A stretch of 63,511 bases of DNA, filler included. It is 8 parts of 8 records of this genome, joined end to end, with 100 filler letters (N's around TTAATTAATTAA, not from the genome) between each part and the next. Parts side by side here need not be neighbours in the genome. Positions count along the whole stretch, not along the records: positions 38,559 to 42,029 come from SRR11831585_204; 7 more parts are not named here. One strand, 5' to 3'. Shown here piece after piece: positions 13,446-44,572 of the stretch. The notes beneath the pieces were generated by a model that saw only the letters and a program-made list of their open reading frames with translations, did no database searches and was not told the origin of the DNA. The first letter of the stretch is position 1; the number at the start of each line of letters is the position of its first letter. The translations under genes and the position numbers were made by a program.

Positions 13446-14597
13446 TTAATCAGCTTGCTTACGCAGGAATGCTGGGATATCCAGATAATCCGGCTCTTTC
13501 GCAGTTTGCGGCGCATTGTCATTCACGACTTTAGCAACCGGCTTCTGCTCCTGGGTCAGCGGAGCCATCCCATGCTGCTGGTAGCGATCCATCACTGGCT
13601 GCTGAACCTGCTTATTGGTCACCAGAGTGATTTCAGGACGTTTGTCCATGCCGATACCTGTCGCAACAACGGTTACGCGCAGCTCGTCATTCATATCCGG
13701 GTCAAGAGAAGTACCGATAACCACAGTCGCGTTGTCGGAAGCAAATGCACGGATGGTGTTACCTACCGTTTCGAACTCATCCAGACGCAGGTCGAAGCCC
13801 GCCGTGATGTTAACCAGCACGCCGCGCGCGCCAGACAGGTCGATATCTTCCAGCAGCGGAGAAGAGATAGCCATTTCAGCAGCTTCTTCCGCACGGTCTT
13901 CACCGCTCGCCACGCCAGAACCCATCATTGCGTAGCCCATCTCAGACATTACGGTGCGTACGTCTGCAAAGTCCACGTTCATCAAACCCGGACGAGTAAT
14001 CAGTTCAGCGATACCTTGCACAGCGCCTTTCAGTACATCGTTCGCTGCGCCAAACGCATCCAGCAGGGAGATACCGCGGCCCAGAACTTTCAGCAGTTTG
14101 TCGTTCGGGATAGTGATCAGAGAGTCCACATGCTTGGACAGTTCAGTGATCCCCTGCTCCGCGAATGCCATACGCTTCTTGCCTTCAAAGTTGAAAGGCT
14201 TAGTGACGACAGCAACGGTCAGGATACCCAAATCTTTTGCCACTTCAGCGACGACTGGTGCTGCACCTGTACCGGTACCACCACCCATACCCGCAGCAAT
14301 AAAGACCATGTCTGCACCTTCCAGCGCCGCACGCAATGCATCGCGATCCTCATCAGCCGCATTGCGGCCAACTTCTGGATTAGCGCCAGCGCCCAGTCCT
14401 TTGGTGATACCGCTACCGATTTGAATCGTCTGTCCAACCGCTGTTTTACGCAGCGCTTGTGCATCGGTATTTACCGCGAAGAATTCAACACCTTCAATGC
14501 GCTCGCGCACCATGTGTTCAACAGCATTACCGCCGCCGCCGCCGACGCCGATGACTTTAATCACCGCGTCATTGGTAAGTTCCATTGGTTCAAACAT
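13446..14597 (-). CDS. ftsZ: Cell division GTPase FtsZ
   Basis: 383 aa; GGGTGTG tubulin signature; C-terminal [11 protein letters not shown]. Confidence 0.99.
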
Positions 14598-14657
14598 AGT
14601 TTCTCTCCGATTTGTGCCTGTCGCCTGAGGCCGTAATCATCGTCGGCCTCATAAAAA

Positions 14658-15920
14658 TTAAAACTCTTTTCGCAGCCAACTATTGAGTCGCTTGATCCAC
14701 GAGCCAACTGATGCTGTAACACGTTTTTCTACTTCAGCTTCACCGTTAAGATGTGACTCTTTCCCATAGTGAAGCAATCCCACCGCCGTCGAATAATACG
14801 GCTCCTGAGCATAATCCGTTAAACCGGTAATGTTCAGCGGCGCGCCGATACGCACTTGCGTATGAAACACGCGCTGAGCACAGGCTGCAAGACCTTCGAT
14901 CTGCGCTGCGCCACCGGTTAATACAATGCCTGCCGCCAGGTGATGTTTAACCCCTTGTTGGCGAAGCTTTTCCTGCAACTGCAATATCTCTTCGTTGACC
15001 AGGTTGAGCAGCTCGGTATAGCGCGGCTCGATCACCTCTGCCAGTGTCTGACGTTGCAGACTCCGTGGCGGACGACCACCTACGCTCGGCACTTCCACGC
15101 TCTCATCTTTTCCAACGATGGAACCCAGCGCACAACCGTGGCGAACTTTAATCGCTTCGGCGTCGCTTGGCGGCGTGCCAAAGGCGTAAGCGATATCACT
15201 GGTCACGACATTGCCAGCATAAGGAATTACCTTAGTGTGGCGCAATGCCCCACCGGTATAAACGGCGATATCCATTGTACCACCACCGATATCGACGACG
15301 CAGACACCCAGTTCACGTTCATCTTCCGTCAATACCGAATAACTTGATGCCAGTCCGGCAAATATCAGTTGGTCAACTTTCAGCCCACAACGTTCAACCG
15401 CTTTGACGATGTTTTTCGCCATATCGTTGTGACATGTGATCAGGTGCACTTTTGCCTGCATCCGCACGCCCGAAAGTCCTACCGGATTCTTGATCCCTTC
15501 CTGATAGTCAATCGCATACTCTTGCGGGATCACATGCAGCACACGATGCTCATCGCGCACACGCACCGATTTCGCGGTATGGACGACGTTTTCCACATCT
15601 TCTTGCGTCACTTCTTCTTCAGAAATAGGCACCATACCAATTTCATTCTGGCAGCTGATGTGCTTACCAGAAAGCGCCAGATATACCGAAGAGATCTGAC
15701 AATCTGCCATCAATTCTGCCTGGTCAATGGCGCGTTGTACGCACTTGACCACGGATTCGAGGTCGTTCACCCCGCCTTTATCCATACCACGCGACGGGCA
15801 GCTGCCCACGCCAATGATATTGACCATACCGTCGGGCAGAACTTCCCCTACTAAAGCGGCAACCTTCGCGGTACCAATCTCCAGTCCTACTACCAGTTTT
15901 CTGTCCGTCGCCTTGATCAT
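14658..15920 (-). CDS. ftsA: Cell division protein FtsA
   Basis: 420 aa actin-like (EIGTAKV, DIGGGT, LTGGAA). Confidence 0.99.
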
Positions 15921-16747
15921 TGTTGTTCTGCCTGTGCCTGATTTTGTTGCTGAGTAGATTCCTCTGGCGGCAAGGGCGCCCAGCCTACTGCCGCTCCAGA
16001 GTCATAACGCAAATCAACGTAGCTAATCCGTTTGCCATCGGTTTGCGCCTGCTGCTGTAAAACCGGATAAAGTTCTACAAAGCGAGCCAAACGTTTCATC
16101 GTATCGCCCCGGCCAAGATTGAGCTTAATATCGTTATTCAGCGTCAACTGCCAGGAACGCCGCGCGGTCATCGCCGCTTCCTTCAGAGTAAATCTGTCCT
16201 TTGCCAGCATCTGCCCCATTTCGCGATAGCCCTGCAACACTTCATTGGCGCTGCCTTCCGGGCCATACAGCATTGGAAGCACCTGCTTGCTGGTGCGTTC
16301 TGGCGGCACGCTGAAGGTATTTCCTTCCGCGTCTACCATATGTTGATCATTCCACCGCGCAATCGGCACATATTCAACCAGATGAATCTTCAATTCATCA
16401 GGCCACTGCTTTCTGACGCTCACCTGCTTAATCCACGGCAGGCGTTGTTCTATTTGCGTCTGGATGATGTTGACATCCTGGGTCATAAAGGTACCCGGCT
16501 CACCCAATGCCAGGATCGACTGCCGGATATCGTCATTACGTGTGTAATGGCGTTCACCGGTCAACACCAGCTTTGAGAGCGGCAGGCGTTGCGCATCTTC
16601 CATCCAGCCCAACACGACCCAGCCGCTCACCAACACTGTCGTTAAAACGGTCAGCAGGAAAAGGATCCCCGCCAGACGCGTTCCATTATTGCGGCGAGAA
16701 GAAACCTCTTCTTCGCTGTTTCGCGTGTTCAGAGCAGCCTGCGACAT
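15917..16747 (-). CDS. ftsQ: Cell division protein FtsQ
   Basis: 276 aa; single TM, POTRA domain, YVDLRY. Confidence 0.98.
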
Positions 16748-16748
16748 A

Positions 16749-19137
<2,389 letters not shown>

Positions 19138-19190
19138 TCTTTACGCCATTAACTTCTTAAATTCATACGATGCAAAAGGCATCGCTACAA

Positions 19191-20258
19191 TTACGCCCGG
19201 GCAACCCGGCTCACTTCATTTGCCACTCGCTCGGTGGCATCCGGAATGGATGCAGCGCGGGCGCGTTCTGCCATGGTTAATAAGGTTTCTCGCGACCACC
19301 CGGCCAGGGTGTTGGCGACAGCATCCACGCTAAGCTGTGGCTGCTCGATAATTTTGGCTGCGCCCGCTTTTTCCAGCGGTAGCGCATTCCAGTATTGCTG
19401 GCGGTCTTTATGTTGAAACGGCACAAACAACGCCGGTAGTCCTGCCGCGGCGATTTCACTCACCGTTAACGCACCGGAGCGGCAAACGACGACATCCGCC
19501 CACGCATACGCCGCCGCCATATCATCAATAAATTCCGTCACTTTATGCTGCGGTTGCCCCGCTTCGGCATACGCCTGTTCAACGGATTGTTGCGAACCTT
19601 TGCCGCTCTGATGCCAGATAGTGACTGAATCACCCAGTTTCGCAGCAACCTGCGGCATTGTCTGGTTAAGAATGCGTGCGCCCTGAGAACCACCCACTAC
19701 CAGCACACGAACCGGACCTTCACGTCCAGCCAAACGTTGCTGCGGCAACGGCAGCGCCAACACATCGGTACGCACCGGGTTACCCACTACTTCCGCATTA
19801 GGGAAAGCACCTGGAAACGCCTGCATCACTTTGGTGGCAATCTTCGCCAGCCATTTATTGGTTAAGCCCGCAATACCGTTTTGTTCATGAAGTACAACCG
19901 GAATGCCTAACGACCACGCGGCCAGACCACCTGGACCTGACACGTAGCCTCCCATACCGAGCACCACGTCAGGTTTGTACGCTTTCATAATCGCCCGCGC
20001 CTGACGCCAGGCGTTGAAGATACGCAGCGGGGCAGCTATCAGTGCTTTTATACCTTTTCCACGCAGACCAGAGATACGAATGAAATCAATTTCGATGCCA
20101 TGTTTTGGCACTAAGTCCGCTTCCATACGGTCGGCAGTCCCCAGCCAGCGAACTTGCCAACCCTGAGCCATTAGATGGTGCGCAACCGCCAGTCCCGGGA
20201 ATACATGTCCACCGGTTCCGCCTGCCATCACCATTAATCGCTTTCCTTGACCACTCAT
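19191..20258 (-). CDS. murG: Lipid II GlcNAc transferase
   Basis: 355 aa; GGTGGH, HEQN, GGSQGA. Confidence 0.98.
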
Positions 20259-35723: not shown

Positions 35724-35823
35724 NNNNNNNNNNNNNNNNNNNNNNNNNNNNNNNNNNNNNNNNNNNNTTAATTAATTAANNNNNNNNNNNNNNNNNNNNN
35801 NNNNNNNNNNNNNNNNNNNNNNN
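35724..35823. other. Artificial contig spacer
   Basis: 44 N + TTAATTAATTAA + 44 N. Confidence 0.99.
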
Positions 35824-38458: not shown

Positions 38459-38558
38459 NNNNNNNNNNNNNNNNNNNNNNNNNNNNNNNNNNNNNNNNNN
38501 NNTTAATTAATTAANNNNNNNNNNNNNNNNNNNNNNNNNNNNNNNNNNNNNNNNNNNN
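38459..38558. other. Artificial contig spacer
   Basis: 44 N + TTAATTAATTAA + 44 N. Confidence 0.99.
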
Positions 38559-38642: not shown

Positions 38643-41600
38643 GGCTCTCAGACGTGTGATAAGCTCTACGACAACCACCGAGGCACAGACACCACGCGTC
38701 AATGGCTGGGAGGAAATGGTGCTGGTTATGCAAGTGTGACGCTGGACTTGGGGTCTGTCATGAATATCGCACGAGTGGTATGTGCGCACAGCCAGTTGAG
38801 GTTTTTGGTGTTGAATGGAGTCTACGTCCTGCGTACTGTAGTCGAGTAGCAAGTATAGTGTTATTGTGGTGGGATAACGTTGTGTGTGCAGGTGCTCTAC
38901 CAATACAACTCAGCGCAACCGTATGGCATGGCACAGGTATGAACTCTTCCATGTTGGTGCCACCGTCCTCTATGATATTCTTCTTTCTTACCTCGTTCTT
39001 TCTCATGCACAGTATGTTCTGTATGGCACCACATCCGCGGGCACCCCCTACGAGAACGCCCTCACAGGCACCAACACGCTCTCAGCCCTGGACGGCTCCT
39101 CAGAAACACCTCTCGGAACACATGTTCTGACACGCAGCGCCACCTCTACTACAGGCACCGCCATTGAGTGTGTGCTGTGCAGCTCCGACAGCAGTTCCAT
39201 CGCAGCACTGTCCCCGCAGACAAGCATGGACAACTGTCAGTGTGTGTGGGGCAAAGCGAGGTGGCATGAACGGTGCGTCGTTGACAAAGTTCGTTCTCCT
39301 TGACGCGATTGCGTGCTCCTTTATTGCTGTGAGCAGGATTTGACCATGTATGTGCACAGCTGTTTGGGGCCTCTCCCTGCACCGGGGCTCTCTGCGGGCG
39401 GGATTCTAGCCGTGGGTACAAGTGTTAGCCCCACAGTCAACACGGATGTTACCGCCGAATTTGGTGCGCACGACTTCATGGCCACTGTGGATGCGTCGCT
39501 GATGTGATGATTCCTGTGTGTATAATGCAGATGACGCCGCTATTAATGTGCGCTACACGACGGATGGCAGCACACCCACAGCCTCCTCTGCTATTCTGAC
39601 CACGTACACGCCACCATCCCTTGCAACTACAACTGTGAAAGCAGTGGAGACACAAACCGGCAGACTGACAAGCGCGGTGACAACTGTGGGCTACACCATC
39701 TACGGGTCCCTTGCCACCACCGTCGAGCCGGCCACAGGCACCTACACCACTTCGGTCACACTCAGTACGTTGGGCACACCCAGAATTTGTCATCTCTAAC
39801 CTTGTCCTCCATGAGTTGCTGCTCTATGGATATGTCTCACGTGTTTGTGCGCCTTCCAGATATCACCTGTGCCATGTACCCGCCATCGTCCCAGCCTCTC
39901 ACCATCTACTACTCCACGGACGGCTCCGACCCCACTGTCGCGTCCCTTGTGTACTCGGGCAGCCCTGTACTGAGTGCCAGCAACGGTCTGACAGTGATCA
40001 CCGTGAAGGCCCTGTGTTCTGCGGTACGCCCAATTCTCATTTTTCTAATTTTTATTGTATGGTCGTCATACTCACCACCGATGTGCTTCCGTTCGCGCAC
40101 TGACTCTTTATTGTGTGTGCTGTGCAGCCATGGTACTTCAACAGCACCACAGCCACCACCACCTACACCATTCAGATGTACACGGAGCGTCCTGTCATCC
40201 ACCTCAATCAGACCTCTTACATGGATAACGGCGTTGTCAGCATGTCCTCAGCCACCTCAGGCGCCTCTATCTATTACAGTGTGGCTAACGGGCCCTCGAC
40301 TCTGTATACGGACACATTCTTGGTGCCGTGTGTGGGGCAGCTGTCCATCTGCAATGTCACACTCGATGCCACGGTACGAACGCTTAATGGACTGTCTTGA
40401 GTTGAGAATAACCGTTGTGGTAGGCCACCAAAACAAACTACCTGAACACCACCACCCGTTCATACGGTACTGTATTGGCATCGAAGTATATTCAGGTTCG
40501 TTCTGATGCAGTTTATTAGTTCTCATATTCAATGCCAAGCACATTCCCGCACTCTCGCCGTTTGGAGGAAGATACAGCCCATCAATATCGGTGACGATGA
40601 CAACGAGCCCAAACGCATCGTACGTTGCAAATATTGCACTATATAACCCGTTCCTTATAATCATGTATCTGATTATTATTTTAATTGCGTAATAGTGTTG
40701 CTCTGCGCTACACCACGGATGGTGCTCAACCAACTGCAAGTTCTCCATTATATTTTGGGACGCCTCTCAGTATTTCTTCAATTGGAAACAACACCATACG
40801 AGCCAGATACGAAGTCGTACGCTGTATTGCCATCGTGACACGACGTTATATAATCCCTACCCTTCGATGTAGATATTAGGCGGCACGATGTACCACTCTG
40901 ACGTTCAGACGGAGGTCTACATGCTGACGGGTACACTTCAGCTATTTGTTCTTCCAGTCAGCGGCGTGTATGAAGGGCGCGTCGATGTCAGTATCCGAAC
41001 ACGGCCTAATTTTCTTGTGATCTTGCAGTTCTATAATTTTTGAGTTTCCTTCACTTTTGTTTCAGATCTGACGTGCATCCAAAGCCATCCATCGGCGTAT
41101 CTTCCAACGATTTTATACAGCTTAAACGATTCAGTGAGTCCCAACAGCACGTACAGCTCCTACCCACTCACTCTGGCGTCACAAGGTGGCAATACGAACT
41201 ACAGCCTCACGGCTGTTTGCCGAGCGGTGCGCAGAACTATTGCATTTGGTCTAGTGATTGCTAATGCTGCGGATAACAGGAATTTTACAGCGATAGTGAC
41301 CAGAAGGCAGCACAGTACAGCCTGCTCGAGTATATCACAACACCTGTTATCACTTTGAATGAGACATACTACCTGGACAAAGCGATGGTCAACATTACGA
41401 CTGTGTCCGCGCCCGCGTCTATATACTACCGGGTTGACAGTGGATCAGACACTCTTTACATGAGTCTGTTTGAAATTCCCTGCTCGGGGACATTGTCGGT
41501 GTGCAATTTTACCATCACCGCGTGGGTACGCATCCTGTACGCACAGTGAAGTGTGTATTGATTTATTTATTTGTAGGCCAATCAAACCAACCACGTATCA

Positions 41601-42029
41601 TCGGGTATTGCGCAATCTCAAGCCCTAGTTTTCAACTCAGTGTATCAGCCGGTGTTCTCGCCCAACCCAGGGATTGTGGGTGCTACCCAGGCTGTTACGA
41701 TGACTGCTGTTTCGCACAGTAGGTAAGAACTAACCCCTTCTGATGTGCGGTCATTCCCAGCAGTAATGCTAACTCTGTTGATTCTGCAGCGTCACTATCA
41801 AGTACACTGTGAGTGGGGAGACGGTCAACTCAACATCACCCGTCTATGCGAGCGCAATATTGCTAAACCAGGTTGGCAACGTCACTGTTCAAGCGCGATT
41901 TTTCTCGGTACGTCGTTCCATGTGCTCATTATTCATAATGCTTTCGTTATCCAGACCATATCGGGTGTGACACACATGTCCGCTTTGACCCAAGCAGTGT
42001 ATTCCGTGTACGGATACCTCACACTGTCC
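38643..42029 (+). CDS. Intron-containing eukaryotic gene fragment (16 exons, 772 codons, open at both ends): discoidin/F5-8C-like domain, Cys-rich module and tandem chitobiase/FN3-associated-like repeats; probable surface glycoprotein
   Basis: Hand-built exons 38643-38777, 38892-38936, 39013-39272, 39360-39463, 39531-39764, 39860-40023, 40128-40373, 40424-40466, 40520-40619, 40696-40816, 40873-40990, 41066-41226, 41280-41525, 41577-41722, 41790-41907, 41955-42029 total 2316 nt with no stops. All introns are GT..AG, 47-114 nt. Repeated RYTTDGS.PT and IYYSTDGSDPT motifs. Confidence 0.85.
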
Positions 42030-42129
42030 NNNNNNNNNNNNNNNNNNNNNNNNNNNNNNNNNNNNNNNNNNNNTTAATTAATTAANNNNNNNNNNNNNNN
42101 NNNNNNNNNNNNNNNNNNNNNNNNNNNNN
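42030..42129. other. Artificial contig spacer
   Basis: 44 N + TTAATTAATTAA + 44 N. Confidence 0.99.
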
Positions 42130-44472
42130 ACATGAGCACAGATACAGCTTGTTGCATCTCTACGTGCAGCGAGGCCAGTGCCCTAGCGCGCTCCTCGTGT
42201 GCGTCCTGCAGCTGTGTGCGTAACTCGTGTTCCCGCGCCGCAGCTTGTCGTTCCGCCGTCCCCATCCGCCGCTCCAGGTCGCTTGTCAGCGCATCCGTCA
42301 GCTCCGCACGCACCGTGGACAGCTCACGAACATGCTGTTCACGCAGTGTTTGCAGCTCCTGTTGTGAGTGGCTGCGCTGGGTCTGCGCATCGGCCAATGC
42401 ACTGCGGACCTGCTCTTGCAGCGACGCCACTTGCACTGTCAGCTGTGCCCGCACCGTATGAGCCTCCTCCAGAGCGCTCTGCAGCTCAGAGGCTCGATTG
42501 TTCGACTCGGTCCTGAGCGCCTGGAGTGCGGCGGCTTGGTCTGCCTGCAGCGCGGCCACACGCTCAGCGCTCTCAGACCGCGCGGCCATATGTTTCTCAT
42601 GCAGCGCACGCAGATCCTGTTCGGCATGCTGGCGGGCTTGTGTCGCAGCCGCTAACAACGCAGATTCCTGCATGTTCTCCTCCGCCCACACCTGCTTCTG
42701 ATGCGCGAGTTCCTGCTGTGATTCCGCACGCAGTCGTTCAAGCTGTGCCACGGTGTGTGCATGTTCTGCCTCCGCATGCTGCAGACGCACAGACAATGCT
42801 GCACCGTCAGCCTGGGCTGTTCTCAGCTGCTCTTCTAGCTCACGCACACGCTCTCGAAGCACACCCACCTGTTGGTCGTAGTCCGCGGTGACTGTCACAA
42901 GCGAGGCACGTGTGTCTGTGAGCGATTGCGTGAGCGAGGCCACTTGCGCCACAAGAGCGCTCTTGGCCGCGGTGAGTTCCTCACTGGCATTGGTCGCTAC
43001 CGCAAGGTTTTCTGACACGCGTGCACAGTCGGCCCGCAGTGTGTCAGCGAGCGTGCGTGCGCTCTGTAGCTCTTGCTGCAGCTTGGCCGCTCTCACACCC
43101 AACAGATCCTTCGCATGCTGAGTCTCGTTCAGCTGCTTGTTCGAACGCTCGACTTCCGAGCGTGCACTCGCCGTTTCTGACCGGCTGACAGCCAGATCAG
43201 ACTGGATCTGCGCGTACGCTGCGGCAGCCGCACCCAACTGTGACTCGCATTCGCCCAAGCGTGCGCTGCATCGTTTGAGCTCCTCCGTGAGATTCTCCTG
43301 AGATACACGCACAGAAGCAGCATCCGCCTGCGCCCGAGATCGCTCGATTTCTGAGGTATCGAGCAAAGCTCGCAGCTCAGAAACCTGCTGCGTCAGCGCA
43401 CGATGCGATGTTTCATGGGCGGCAGCCTCCGACGCGCACTCTTCCACCTTGGCAGCCAACTGTGTCTCTAGCTGAGCCACGCGGCCCTCCGCGGTGAGGA
43501 GAGAGGTTTTGAGCGAGGACACCTGTTCGTTCAGAGCGCCCACCGCGGTCTCCAGATCGTGTACACGGGACTGGTGCGAAACACGCATCTCCTCCACGTT
43601 CCGGTGCGCAGAAGCCAAATCGGCTTGGACAACACCCAGACGCGCTGTTTCGCCGGCCAACTGCGCACCCAACTCTGACACACGCTGTTGAGCCGCGTCC
43701 AACTGCGCACGGAGCTCACTGAGTTGCTGTGTGTGCACGGCTGCACACTCGCTCCGTGCCGCACTGTGGCTCTCACGCACGCGGTCCATCTCGCTGTTGT
43801 GTTGCGACACAGCCGTACGCAGATCCTCCTCAGCATGCTCGCATCGCACCCGCACTGCATCCCGCTCACTACATGCAGCTGCAAGCTGGACGGCCAGGTC
43901 GGCTTGCTTCACTTGCAAACTCTCAAGCTGAGTCCGTAGCTGGGATTGCACCGCGGCGTGCTCCTGATCGTTGCGTGTGCGGTCTGCGGTGTGCGCATCC
44001 TCCAGGGCCTGTCTGCCTGTATGGTACGTCTCTGTCAACTGTACAAGCTTGTCCGCAGACTGGGACAGTTGTGACTGCAATTCTGAGACGCGAGCGTGTG
44101 CTGCTGCTAGCTCGGACACGAGGGTGGACCTCTGCGCGTTGAGCTCATCATTCTGCGCCCGAAGCTGCGCCGACAGAGACTCTGCGGCCGCAGTATGCGC
44201 GGCGAGAGTGCGATCCGCATGTTGCTGCAGCTCGGCGCATGCCAGATCATGGGCCGCACGCACCGTGTTCAGGTGTCCTGTGTGTTCGAGCAGCTGACGG
44301 TCTCGCTCTTGCACATCGGCACGCGCCGCAGCCAGCGCGCTCTGAAGAGAGGCGTTCTCAGCTTGGGCCTCTAACAAGCTGCGTCGCAACACGCCCGTCT
44401 CCTCGTCCCACACAGTCTGCCGCTGCCGCAGCGTGCTCTCGTGCTCAGCAGCTCGAGTTTCGAGCTCTGTCC
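42130..44472 (-). CDS. Long coiled-coil protein fragment (non-E. coli, probably eukaryotic), open at both ends
   Basis: One frame open across the whole contig (~780 aa); A/E/Q/R/L/S-rich with periodic leucines; no Pro seen. Confidence 0.85.
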
Positions 44473-44572
44473 NNNNNNNNNNNNNNNNNNNNNNNNNNNN
44501 NNNNNNNNNNNNNNNNTTAATTAATTAANNNNNNNNNNNNNNNNNNNNNNNNNNNNNNNNNNNNNNNNNNNN
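44473..44572. other. Artificial contig spacer
   Basis: 44 N + TTAATTAATTAA + 44 N. Confidence 0.99.

Follow-up and report, generated by a model that had tools for sequence, protein, structure and literature searches.

Locus and gene model

The window analysed here is a stretch of 63,511 nt that joins 8 contigs with N spacers between them. The contig at 38559-42029 (3471 nt, + strand), which lies between N spacers, carries a single gene with introns, whose reading frame runs off the contig on both sides. No counterpart of this contig turned up in 5,426 E. coli genomes, in the nearest genome (G001) or in 41 bacterial relatives. The gene model comprises 16 exons and 15 introns, and the reading frame is interrupted by each intron. 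All of the splice sites are predicted, and their selection was guided partly by keeping the frame open. Every predicted intron is of the GT-AG type (15/15), and the predicted 5' sites read GTACG in seven and GTGCG in three of the 15. An in-frame stop occurs inside 11 of the 15 introns and the other four have frame-shifting lengths. Moreover, the GC fraction is 0.539 in exons versus 0.437 in introns. For an intron in domain C1 that lacks a counterpart in the second cassette, three workable models were compared, namely 40467-40519, 40496-40539 and an intron of 26 nt, and the first of these, in phase 1, is preferred. A minus-strand ORF at 40260-40748 was considered as a gene and rejected; it has no Pfam match.

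The predicted spliced product has 772 aa and consists of a head followed by seven consecutive domains of the CHB_HEX_C_1/Fn3_assoc type, each of about 85 aa, and 5 residues of an eighth. It contains 17 N-x-S/T sequons, 14 Cys and 27% Ser+Thr. The contig borders truncate the gene on both sides, so that further units, a signal peptide or an anchor may lie beyond them. Judged from these features, the contig is part of a nuclear gene of a eukaryote and encodes a predicted surface protein, and its introns are presumably spliced as modelled. The product would be an extracellular, glycosylated and disulfide-braced rod, probably adhesive or structural in function, and the repeat array may have the shape of the 'stalk' proposed in the initial annotation.

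Pfam scans were run on exon fragments rather than on whole spliced domains, with cutoffs of 22 bits for CHB_HEX_C_1 (PF13290) and 23 bits for Fn3_assoc (PF13287), and the fold and database searches likewise used exon fragments only. Additionally, an HMM of our own was built from 63 repeats cut from 8 bacterial matches, with i-E values given at Z = 1. This HMM recovered all seven domains of the spliced product as directly adjoining matches (i-E 6e-15 to 1.3e-4), and CHB_HEX_C_1 exceeded the Pfam cutoff in exon fragments of four of the seven (A1, B1, A2 and A3). The features of the gene are as follows.

38643..39360, + strand: head, aa 1-147; exons 38643-38777, 38892-38936 and 39013-39272, together with the initial base of the following exon
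39361..39706, + strand: domain A1, aa 148-240; intron 39464-39530 (phase 1); CHB_HEX_C_1 30.5 bits, Fn3_assoc 25.4 bits; own HMM i-E = 2.4e-9
39707..40181, + strand: domain B1, aa 241-332; introns 39765-39859 (phase 1) and 40024-40127 (phase 0); CHB_HEX_C_1 37.8 bits; i-E = 6.1e-15
40182..40539, + strand: domain C1, aa 333-417; introns 40374-40423 (phase 0) and, unpaired, 40467-40519 (phase 1); CHB_HEX_C_1 15.2 bits, below cutoff; i-E = 7.2e-11
40540..40932, + strand: domain A2, aa 418-504; introns 40620-40695 (phase 2) and 40817-40872 (phase 0); CHB_HEX_C_1 35.1 bits; i-E = 7.9e-14
40933..41333, + strand: domain B2, aa 505-595; introns 40991-41065 (phase 1) and 41227-41279 (phase 0); i-E = 1.3e-4, the weakest of the seven
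41334..41642, + strand: domain C2, aa 596-681; intron 41526-41576 (phase 0); CHB_HEX_C_1 16.7 bits, below cutoff; i-E = 6e-9
41643..42014, + strand: domain A3, aa 682-767; introns 41723-41789 (phase 2) and 41908-41954 (phase 0); CHB_HEX_C_1 24.0 bits; i-E = 2.2e-8
42015..42029, + strand: beginning (5 residues) of another domain at the B position; truncated by the contig end, with the frame open at the last base

The first exon of the head (45 aa) reached E = 0.14 with Pfam F5_F8_type_C (PF00754), at 12.7 bits against a cutoff of 28.2, and the 86-aa head exon had no Pfam match and no PDB sequence match (nothing below E = 0.1). The core exon of B2 also had no Pfam match. A1 is the longest module, and the own HMM covers only its C-terminal two thirds. 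An AlphaFold2 model of the C1 exon (82 aa), a partial domain modelled from a 5-row alignment, is all-beta with 5 strands and a mean pLDDT of 64.3; compared with the PDB by Foldseek, this partial model of low information had no match at E <= 0.001. Similarly, PDB sequence searches with the A1 exon and with the C-exon profile returned nothing below E = 0.1.

A 263-residue period, three domain classes and five coinciding introns

The spliced product resembles itself most strongly at the distance of three domains. Its best ungapped BLOSUM62 self-diagonal scores 244 at an offset of 263 aa, followed by 99 at 264, 76 at 172 and 50 at 87, and the maximum in 30 shuffles was 51. The cassette period is thus stronger than the single-domain period, as the initial annotation had anticipated, and the order A-B-C-A-B-C-A-(B) that it described was recovered as seven domains in order and then 5 residues in the B position. 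Class A domains have the classic R/K-Y-T motif and no Cys, class B domains have Cys in N-[IL]-T-C and in C-x-A, and class C domains bear a C-x6-C pair that is invariant in all five aligned sequences (two window copies and three outside relatives). Identity is 24-42% within a class and 13-27% between classes, although A1 is closer to B1 (23/84) than to A3 of its own class (20/82). In a tree of the domains, each of the classes A, B and C is set apart from the rest by a single branch, with the minimum of 2 label changes, and 6 of 200 label shuffles did as well. The proposed clustering by class therefore stands as a grouping, but strong branch support is confined to C (100/99), the values for A (63/70) and B (66/54) being weak.

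The intron and exon coordinates of the initial annotation were all reproduced, and so were the five intron pairs that it placed at equivalent positions. The introns 39765-39859 and 40991-41065 are both in phase 1 and split an AAT Asn codon ahead of I/L-T-C. Those at 40024-40127 and 41227-41279 are in phase 0 after C-S-A and C-R-A, respectively, and those at 40374-40423 and 41526-41576 are in phase 0 before GCC. The pair 40620-40695 and 41723-41789 lies in phase 2 within a Ser codon (TC|T versus AG|C), and 40817-40872 and 41908-41954 are both in phase 0. Furthermore, the exons 40128-40373 and 41280-41525 are each 246 nt long, translate to the peptides reported earlier and have borders that stops and frame changes set without recourse to homology.

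Paired introns are separated by 263-267 aa. A global alignment of the two full cassettes has 91/261 identical residues (34.9%) with 5 gap columns, and all five introns of unit 2 match five of the six introns of unit 1 in position and phase. The hypergeometric P for five coincidences is about 2.5e-12 over 783 nucleotide positions and 6e-10 at the residue level. Mapped on MAFFT, hmmalign and global pairwise alignments, five of five pairs coincide; one pair is off by one HMM state in hmmalign only (A3 64 versus A2 63), beside an insert, and occupies the same columns and phases in the other two. On the own HMM, the introns of B1 and B2 fall at the same states (21 and 66), the phase-0 intron of C1 and C2 at state 63, and the introns of A2 at states 28 and 63. 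A phase-0 intron is thus present in classes A, B and C at profile states 63-66, and at state 63 in both A and C. The sixth intron of unit 1 has no partner in unit 2. In A1, the intron lies 10 nt from the A2/A3 site, further from the R-Y motif and in another phase, and the phase-0 intron is absent. Intron conservation hence covers B1/B2, C1/C2 and A2/A3, not A1.

At the DNA level, little of the likeness between the cassettes is left. The paired introns score z = 0.9-3.1 against mononucleotide shuffles, partly through common splice motifs, so the earlier remark that the introns lack obvious similarity is borne out. A DNA-level alignment survives in only one exon pair (z = 6.5), a direct-repeat search for the cassette gave only matches of 15-19 nt, and TRF reported no array with a period up to 500. 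Since the paired introns are without clear sequence similarity, the duplication is an old one. The branching of a tree of the five C exons (two window copies and three relatives) is not resolved, and it gives no date relative to those relatives.

Relatives and comparable systems

A phmmer search with the 82-aa C1 exon identified tandem-repeat proteins with E down to 6.8e-18. The matches to E = 1e-10 have 30-43% identity and 4-13 matching stretches per protein, and none among 1.84 billion representatives reached E <= 1e-30. A word-filtered search of 5.8 billion clusters with a C-exon profile, in which only candidates of 40-298 residues were scored, yielded three exon-sized relatives, P0024, P0085 and P0039 (sources Logan, ENA and JGI), with profile E-values from 1e-26 to 3e-40. 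All three cover the same exon, namely the end of a B module and the core of a C module with its C-x6-C pair, and are 28-41% identical to the two copies in the window and to each other. Their homology ends where the exon in the window ends and is followed by V-R or V-C, as a GT-started intron would read. Likewise, P0039 has A-V-Q ahead of P-F-Y, as a CAG acceptor would read. The contigs of these relatives are 1-3 kb in size.

Further searches added little. Longer homologues of the C1 exon numbered 0 among 331 candidates, and a B-exon alignment search at near lengths gave 0 matches among 2 candidates. P0024 matched nothing in metagenome or genome contigs and P0039 nothing in metagenome contigs, while P0085 matched 11 loci in genome contigs, all of them ordinary bacterial or MAG records that align with query residues 3-47 only. 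No usable match to the C2 exon was returned from the ESM Atlas. Judged by titles and abstract openings, the 5 papers that name CHB_HEX_C_1 or PF13290 are all bacterial or metagenomic. On the sequence matches, the CHB_HEX_C_1-type module seems otherwise mostly bacterial, and very large protein collections contain next to no members of the present family.

Bacterial tandem CHB_HEX_C_1/Fn3_assoc proteins (P0001-P0023 and others) share the module with the window. They are single continuous proteins in the database, compared here as protein sequences, and look bacterial, for example in N-termini that by eye are lipoprotein-like. Unlike the gene in the window, they show, also by eye, neither the Cys pairs typical of each class nor a high density of N-x-S/T sequons. 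The best bacterial-type match, P0001, repeats with a period of two modules (identity 0.35 at offset 161 versus 0.16 at 80-81), and seven of eight bacterial-type proteins examined have a single-module period of 82-84 aa.

Duplication of multi-domain cassettes with inherited exon structure is textbook knowledge that has been described for decades, and the present case opens no new question in this respect. In the triplicated domains of serum albumin and alpha-fetoprotein, internal duplication copied intron positions and phases. The A-band super-repeats of titin have a multi-domain periodicity above the single-domain similarity. The folds and functions of both are unrelated to those of the gene described here. 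The super-repeats of nebulin, as presented by Bjorklund et al. 2006 (PMC1553488), are 7-domain blocks encoded by a recurring 4-exon block. As in that account of nebulin (PMC1553488), several domains were apparently duplicated together in the window, the exon pattern recurs per block and the exon borders lie inside domains, not in linkers. Unlike nebulin, the block has three domains of the CHB_HEX_C_1 type and five introns, two full blocks are visible, the host is not a vertebrate and nothing connects the gene with muscle or actin binding. The gene would thus be a further example, outside animals, of repeat growth of the nebulin type. Less ordinary is that a mainly bacterial module is interrupted here by introns, in a family so rare in huge protein collections.

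History of the repeat array

The reading we prefer, with a probability of roughly 0.85, is that tandem duplication of an intron-bearing block of three modules lengthened this eukaryotic gene. The old intragenic duplication of an intron-containing three-domain cassette suggested in the initial annotation is by far the simplest account of 34.9% identity together with five shared introns. The modules would have diverged into the kinds A, B and C before the block was duplicated. Subsequently, a genomic block of ~1.1-1.2 kb with one module of each kind and five introns would have been duplicated in tandem, likely by unequal crossing-over or replication slippage between adjacent modules, and the copy would have inherited all five introns at the same codon position and phase. 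Afterwards, protein identity would have decreased to about 35%, the introns would have diverged past clear similarity and changed in length, and one intron would have either arisen in unit 1 or disappeared from unit 2.

A tentative but substantial possibility is that the copied unit was not A-B-C. It may have been B-C-A with A1 as an older stand-alone module, or the array may have grown stepwise with different breakpoints. The restriction of intron conservation to B1/B2, C1/C2 and A2/A3 fits this possibility, as do the displaced intron of A1, its missing phase-0 intron, its greater length and its partial coverage by the own HMM. However, a tandem array looks the same whichever cyclic frame is read, A-B-C or B-C-A. 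In A1, the loss of one intron and the sliding of another would explain the pattern just as well, and A1-A2 (28/82) are as close as A2-A3 (26/86). This possibility refines the duplication of an intron-bearing three-module block and does not contradict it.

It is very improbable that the gene model is wrong or the locus dead, so that the 'introns' are frameshifts and stops of decaying or mis-assembled sequence and the coincidences arise from a homology-guided choice of splice sites. The splice sites are indeed predicted, partly by keeping the frame open, and the intron at 40467-40519 has three workable models. Against this stand the GT...AG borders of 15/15 interruptions with a recurrent GTACG/GTGCG 5' motif, an intron GC 10 points under that of exons, and the two 246-nt exons whose bounds are independent of homology. 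In addition, units only about 35% identical speak against mis-assembly, and at this divergence assembly collapse or duplication is no issue. The copied intron pattern supports the gene model, as the initial annotation had argued, and so do the three outside relatives, which break off just past the same splice points. The copied introns are good internal evidence for a real, spliced eukaryotic gene on a small orphan contig. Such evidence helps gene annotation and helps to spot eukaryotic DNA in an otherwise E. coli K-12 assembly.

Least credible of all is the duplication of an intronless cassette whose same five proto-splice sites were later invaded independently in both copies: the lack of clear similarity between paired introns and the evident intron turnover in the gene (the unpaired intron of unit 1 and the displaced one of A1) would suit it, but five exact coincidences are hardly expected under random placement, the exon bases next to the paired 5' splice sites vary from pair to pair (tca/tca, gcg/gcg, acg/tgg, atc/tag and gtc/tcg), so that no single strong target motif is evident, and at 35% protein identity the loss of clear intron likeness is expected in any case.

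Beyond the duplication of an intron-bearing block, an earlier history can be sketched that we regard as doubtful. An under-sampled protist lineage might have taken up the mostly bacterial module, gained introns at the single-module stage, in line with the phase-0 intron that all three classes have at profile states 63-66, and expanded it in two tiers, from module to A/B/C triplet to array, giving rise to a lineage-restricted family of glycosylated surface rods with structural specialisation of the three positions through class-specific disulfides. If true, the gene would record in which order the domain was acquired, introns were gained and the two duplication rounds took place.

Gene model and domain classes

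The gene under study runs on the plus strand of the following contig and is cut at both contig ends.
38559-42029, plus strand: contig of 3471 nt carrying the intron-bearing gene

Resting on sequence logic and homology, the model derived from stop-to-stop frames and GT/AG inspection predicts 16 exons and 15 introns, and from 38643 onwards the spliced frame meets no stop before the contig runs out. The 15 predicted introns all follow GT-AG, with 5' sites of GTACG (n=7), GTGCG (n=3) or others (n=5) and 3' ends of CAG (n=10) or TAG (n=5). They measure 47-114 nt and have a GC content of 0.437 vs 0.539 for exons; 11 contain an in-frame stop and the remaining four are 3n+2 long. The preferred model yields a product of 772 aa, of which 27% are Ser or Thr and 14 are Cys, and in which 17 N-x-S/T sequons occur. 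Its head (aa 1-147) matched the Pfam family F5_F8_type_C at E = 0.14 only, on one exon. An exact 16-nt repeat is shared by a head coding exon (39168-39183) and the 3' end of intron 40024-40127, with its CAG acceptor (40113-40128); it is GT-rich, hence it may reflect chance.

Pfam scans, run exon by exon on unspliced fragments, placed CHB_HEX_C_1 and Fn3_assoc over cutoff in the exons of A1 (30.5 bits), B1 (37.8), A2 (35.1) and A3 (24.0). As exon fragments, the two 246-nt exons (40128-40373 and 41280-41525, B end plus C core) stayed under the cutoff at 15.2 and 16.7 bits, and the B2 core exon fragment gave no Pfam match. A profile built from 63 repeats cut from eight bacterial matching proteins detected exactly seven adjoining domains on the spliced product (i-E 6e-15 to 1.3e-4). 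Their order is A1-B1-C1-A2-B2-C2-A3, with five residues of a next domain behind them, in agreement with the A-B-C-A-B-C-A-(B) order of the initial annotation.

Domains located by this profile (aa of the spliced product)
185-238: A1
245-330: B1
333-408: C1
420-502: A2
512-592: B2
596-673: C2
681-765: A3

Within classes, identity amounts to 28/82 (A1-A2), 26/86 (A2-A3), 20/82 (A1-A3), 30/90 (B1-B2) and 36/85 (C1-C2); between classes, it is 11-23 out of 81-85 aligned residues. The proposed clustering by class holds in a maximum-likelihood tree of the seven domains in that a single branch sets off every class, the fewest label changes possible (equalled by 6 of 200 label shuffles), but support is strong for C only (100/99; A 63/70, B 66/54). 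Class B carries a Cys in each of the motifs N-[IL]-T-C and C-x-A, class C has a C-x6-C pair invariant in 5/5 aligned sequences, three relatives among them, and class A has no Cys. Outside the cell, the product would form a rod of Ig-like modules that is glycosylated and braced by disulfides, for which an adhesive or structural role seems likely.

Duplication of an intron-containing cassette

The product is dominated by a period of about 264 aa, as anticipated, rather than 88 aa. In self-comparison, the best ungapped diagonals scored 244 at offset 263, 99 at 264, 76 at 172 and 50 at 87, the maximum of 30 shuffles being 51. Aligned globally under BLOSUM62, unit 1 (B1-C1-A2) and unit 2 (B2-C2-A3) have 91/261 identical residues and 5 gap columns. 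When all seven domains are aligned by MAFFT, the paired introns fall at equal column and phase.

Paired introns in the MAFFT alignment
B1/B2: column 29, phase 1
B1/B2: column 88, phase 0
C1/C2: column 85, phase 0
A2/A3: column 41, phase 2
A2/A3: column 85, phase 0

On the purpose-built profile, the pairs fall at states 21, 66, 63 and 28, and the fifth (A2/A3, phase 0) at 63 vs 64, one state apart and next to an insert. In the global alignment, 5/5 unit-2 introns match 5/6 unit-1 introns (hypergeometric P = 2.5e-12, nucleotide resolution), which confirms the claimed equivalence. Within 40618-40696 and 41721-41790, the paired phase-2 introns split a Ser codon that reads TC|T in A2 and, in A3, AG|C. 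The two Ser codon families represented here are such that a single substitution cannot interconvert them while keeping Ser.

Additionally, a phase-0 intron occupies one common loop of all classes (state 63 in C1, C2 and A2, 64 in A3, 66 in B1 and B2).
40374, 40817, 41526, 41908, plus strand: phase-0 introns of classes C and A
40024, 41227, plus strand: phase-0 introns of class B
As a lead only, given loop indels and uncertain alignment, these may descend from a single intron older than the A/B/C split.

At the DNA level, the 246-nt exons form the sole pair still clearly similar (z = 6.5); the remaining exon pairs reach z = 0.1-1.9, and the intron pairs, described initially as lacking obvious similarity, 0.9-3.1. 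The cassette duplication is judged to be old because DNA likeness is clear in one exon pair only and no repeat of cassette length was found by TRF (period <=500) or a repeat finder. Thus, the observation is confirmed, and its interpretation as old duplication of an intron-containing three-domain cassette is supported by coinciding introns and mostly vanished DNA likeness. Shuffling of single-domain exons is ruled out as the mechanism, since the linkers that join the modules contain no intron anywhere in the repeat region.

The copy is not entirely clean. Unit 1 has one extra intron without a unit-2 partner, for which three models keep the frame.
40467-40519, plus strand: GTACTG..TAG, 53 nt
40496-40539, plus strand: GTTCGT..AAG, 44 nt
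40486-40511, plus strand: 26 nt
The first was adopted because its alignment to unit 2 has the highest score (61; the other two 38 and 45). By eye, in the region 40424-40545, the beginning of the skipped stretch still resembles unit-2 coding sequence when read in frame; this intron may thus derive from former coding sequence. Furthermore, 20 nt separate the phase-1 intron of A1 (39464-39530) from the Arg codon in the R-Y motif downstream, the A2 and A3 counterparts are in phase 2 and 10 nt away from that codon, and A1 is without the phase-0 intron; thus the copied unit could be A-B-C or B-C-A. The intron set has changed through loss, gain or sliding.

Relatives and known systems

When 1.84 billion representatives were searched by phmmer with the 82-aa C1 exon, 94 matches had E <= 0.001; of these, 13 reached E <= 1e-10, and no match reached E <= 1e-30. 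The long matches inspected resemble bacterial tandem CHB_HEX_C_1 proteins. The best, P0001 (767 aa, bacterial-looking), has a two-module period, with identity 0.35 at offset 161 vs 0.16 at 80-81; the remaining seven examined have a single-module period. True relatives of this C1 exon are three short matches.
P0024: 84 aa
P0085: 74 aa
P0039: 170 aa
They scored 1e-26 to 3e-40 in profile search, the next matches 2.5e-4. Their homology stops at the window's exon end, and V-R or V-C comes next, as expected if they read through into an intron starting GT. P0039 also has A-V-Q before P-F-Y, same as the window at its CAG acceptor. From this break and the shared A-V-Q, the borders on both sides of the exon are judged to be conserved in other organisms. 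A tree of the five exons (the window's two and these three) gave no resolved branching.

Bjorklund et al. 2006 (PMC1553488) conclude that several domains are commonly duplicated at once; in chicken nebulin, a four-exon block equals a seven-domain block, exon borders all lie inside domains, and the exon pattern is repeated in every block. The present duplication is of the same kind, with three domains and five introns. It adds a case to this well-known mechanism, from a eukaryotic gene family that has been poorly sampled.

Setting among Escherichia coli contigs

Fourteen N runs and a fixed spacer split the window into eight contigs.

Contig breaks
3381-3480
8299-8398
35724-35823
38459-38558
42030-42129
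44473-44572
61146-61245

The large contigs come from E. coli K-12. Their stretch 14000-20000, holding the murC-ftsA region, is 100% identical to strains MG1655 and ER1709, and 71% of the window's words are common to G001, the nearest genome compared, a bacterial one of 4.8 Mb. The repeat-gene contig had no match in G001, 41 bacterial relatives or 5,426 E. coli genomes, and the small contigs 42130-44472 and 61246-63511 had none in those E. coli genomes. Judged from this combination of matching and unmatched contigs, the assembly is of mixed origin, E. coli K-12 with another organism's DNA, at least one foreign contig being eukaryotic.

42131-44413, minus strand: unbroken 761-aa frame, one end open to the contig edge
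This frame is rich in A/E/L/Q/R, has a coiled-coil look by eye and matched no Pfam family at cutoff. It may originate from the same foreign organism as the repeat-gene contig. Its GC content (0.587) is above that of the latter.
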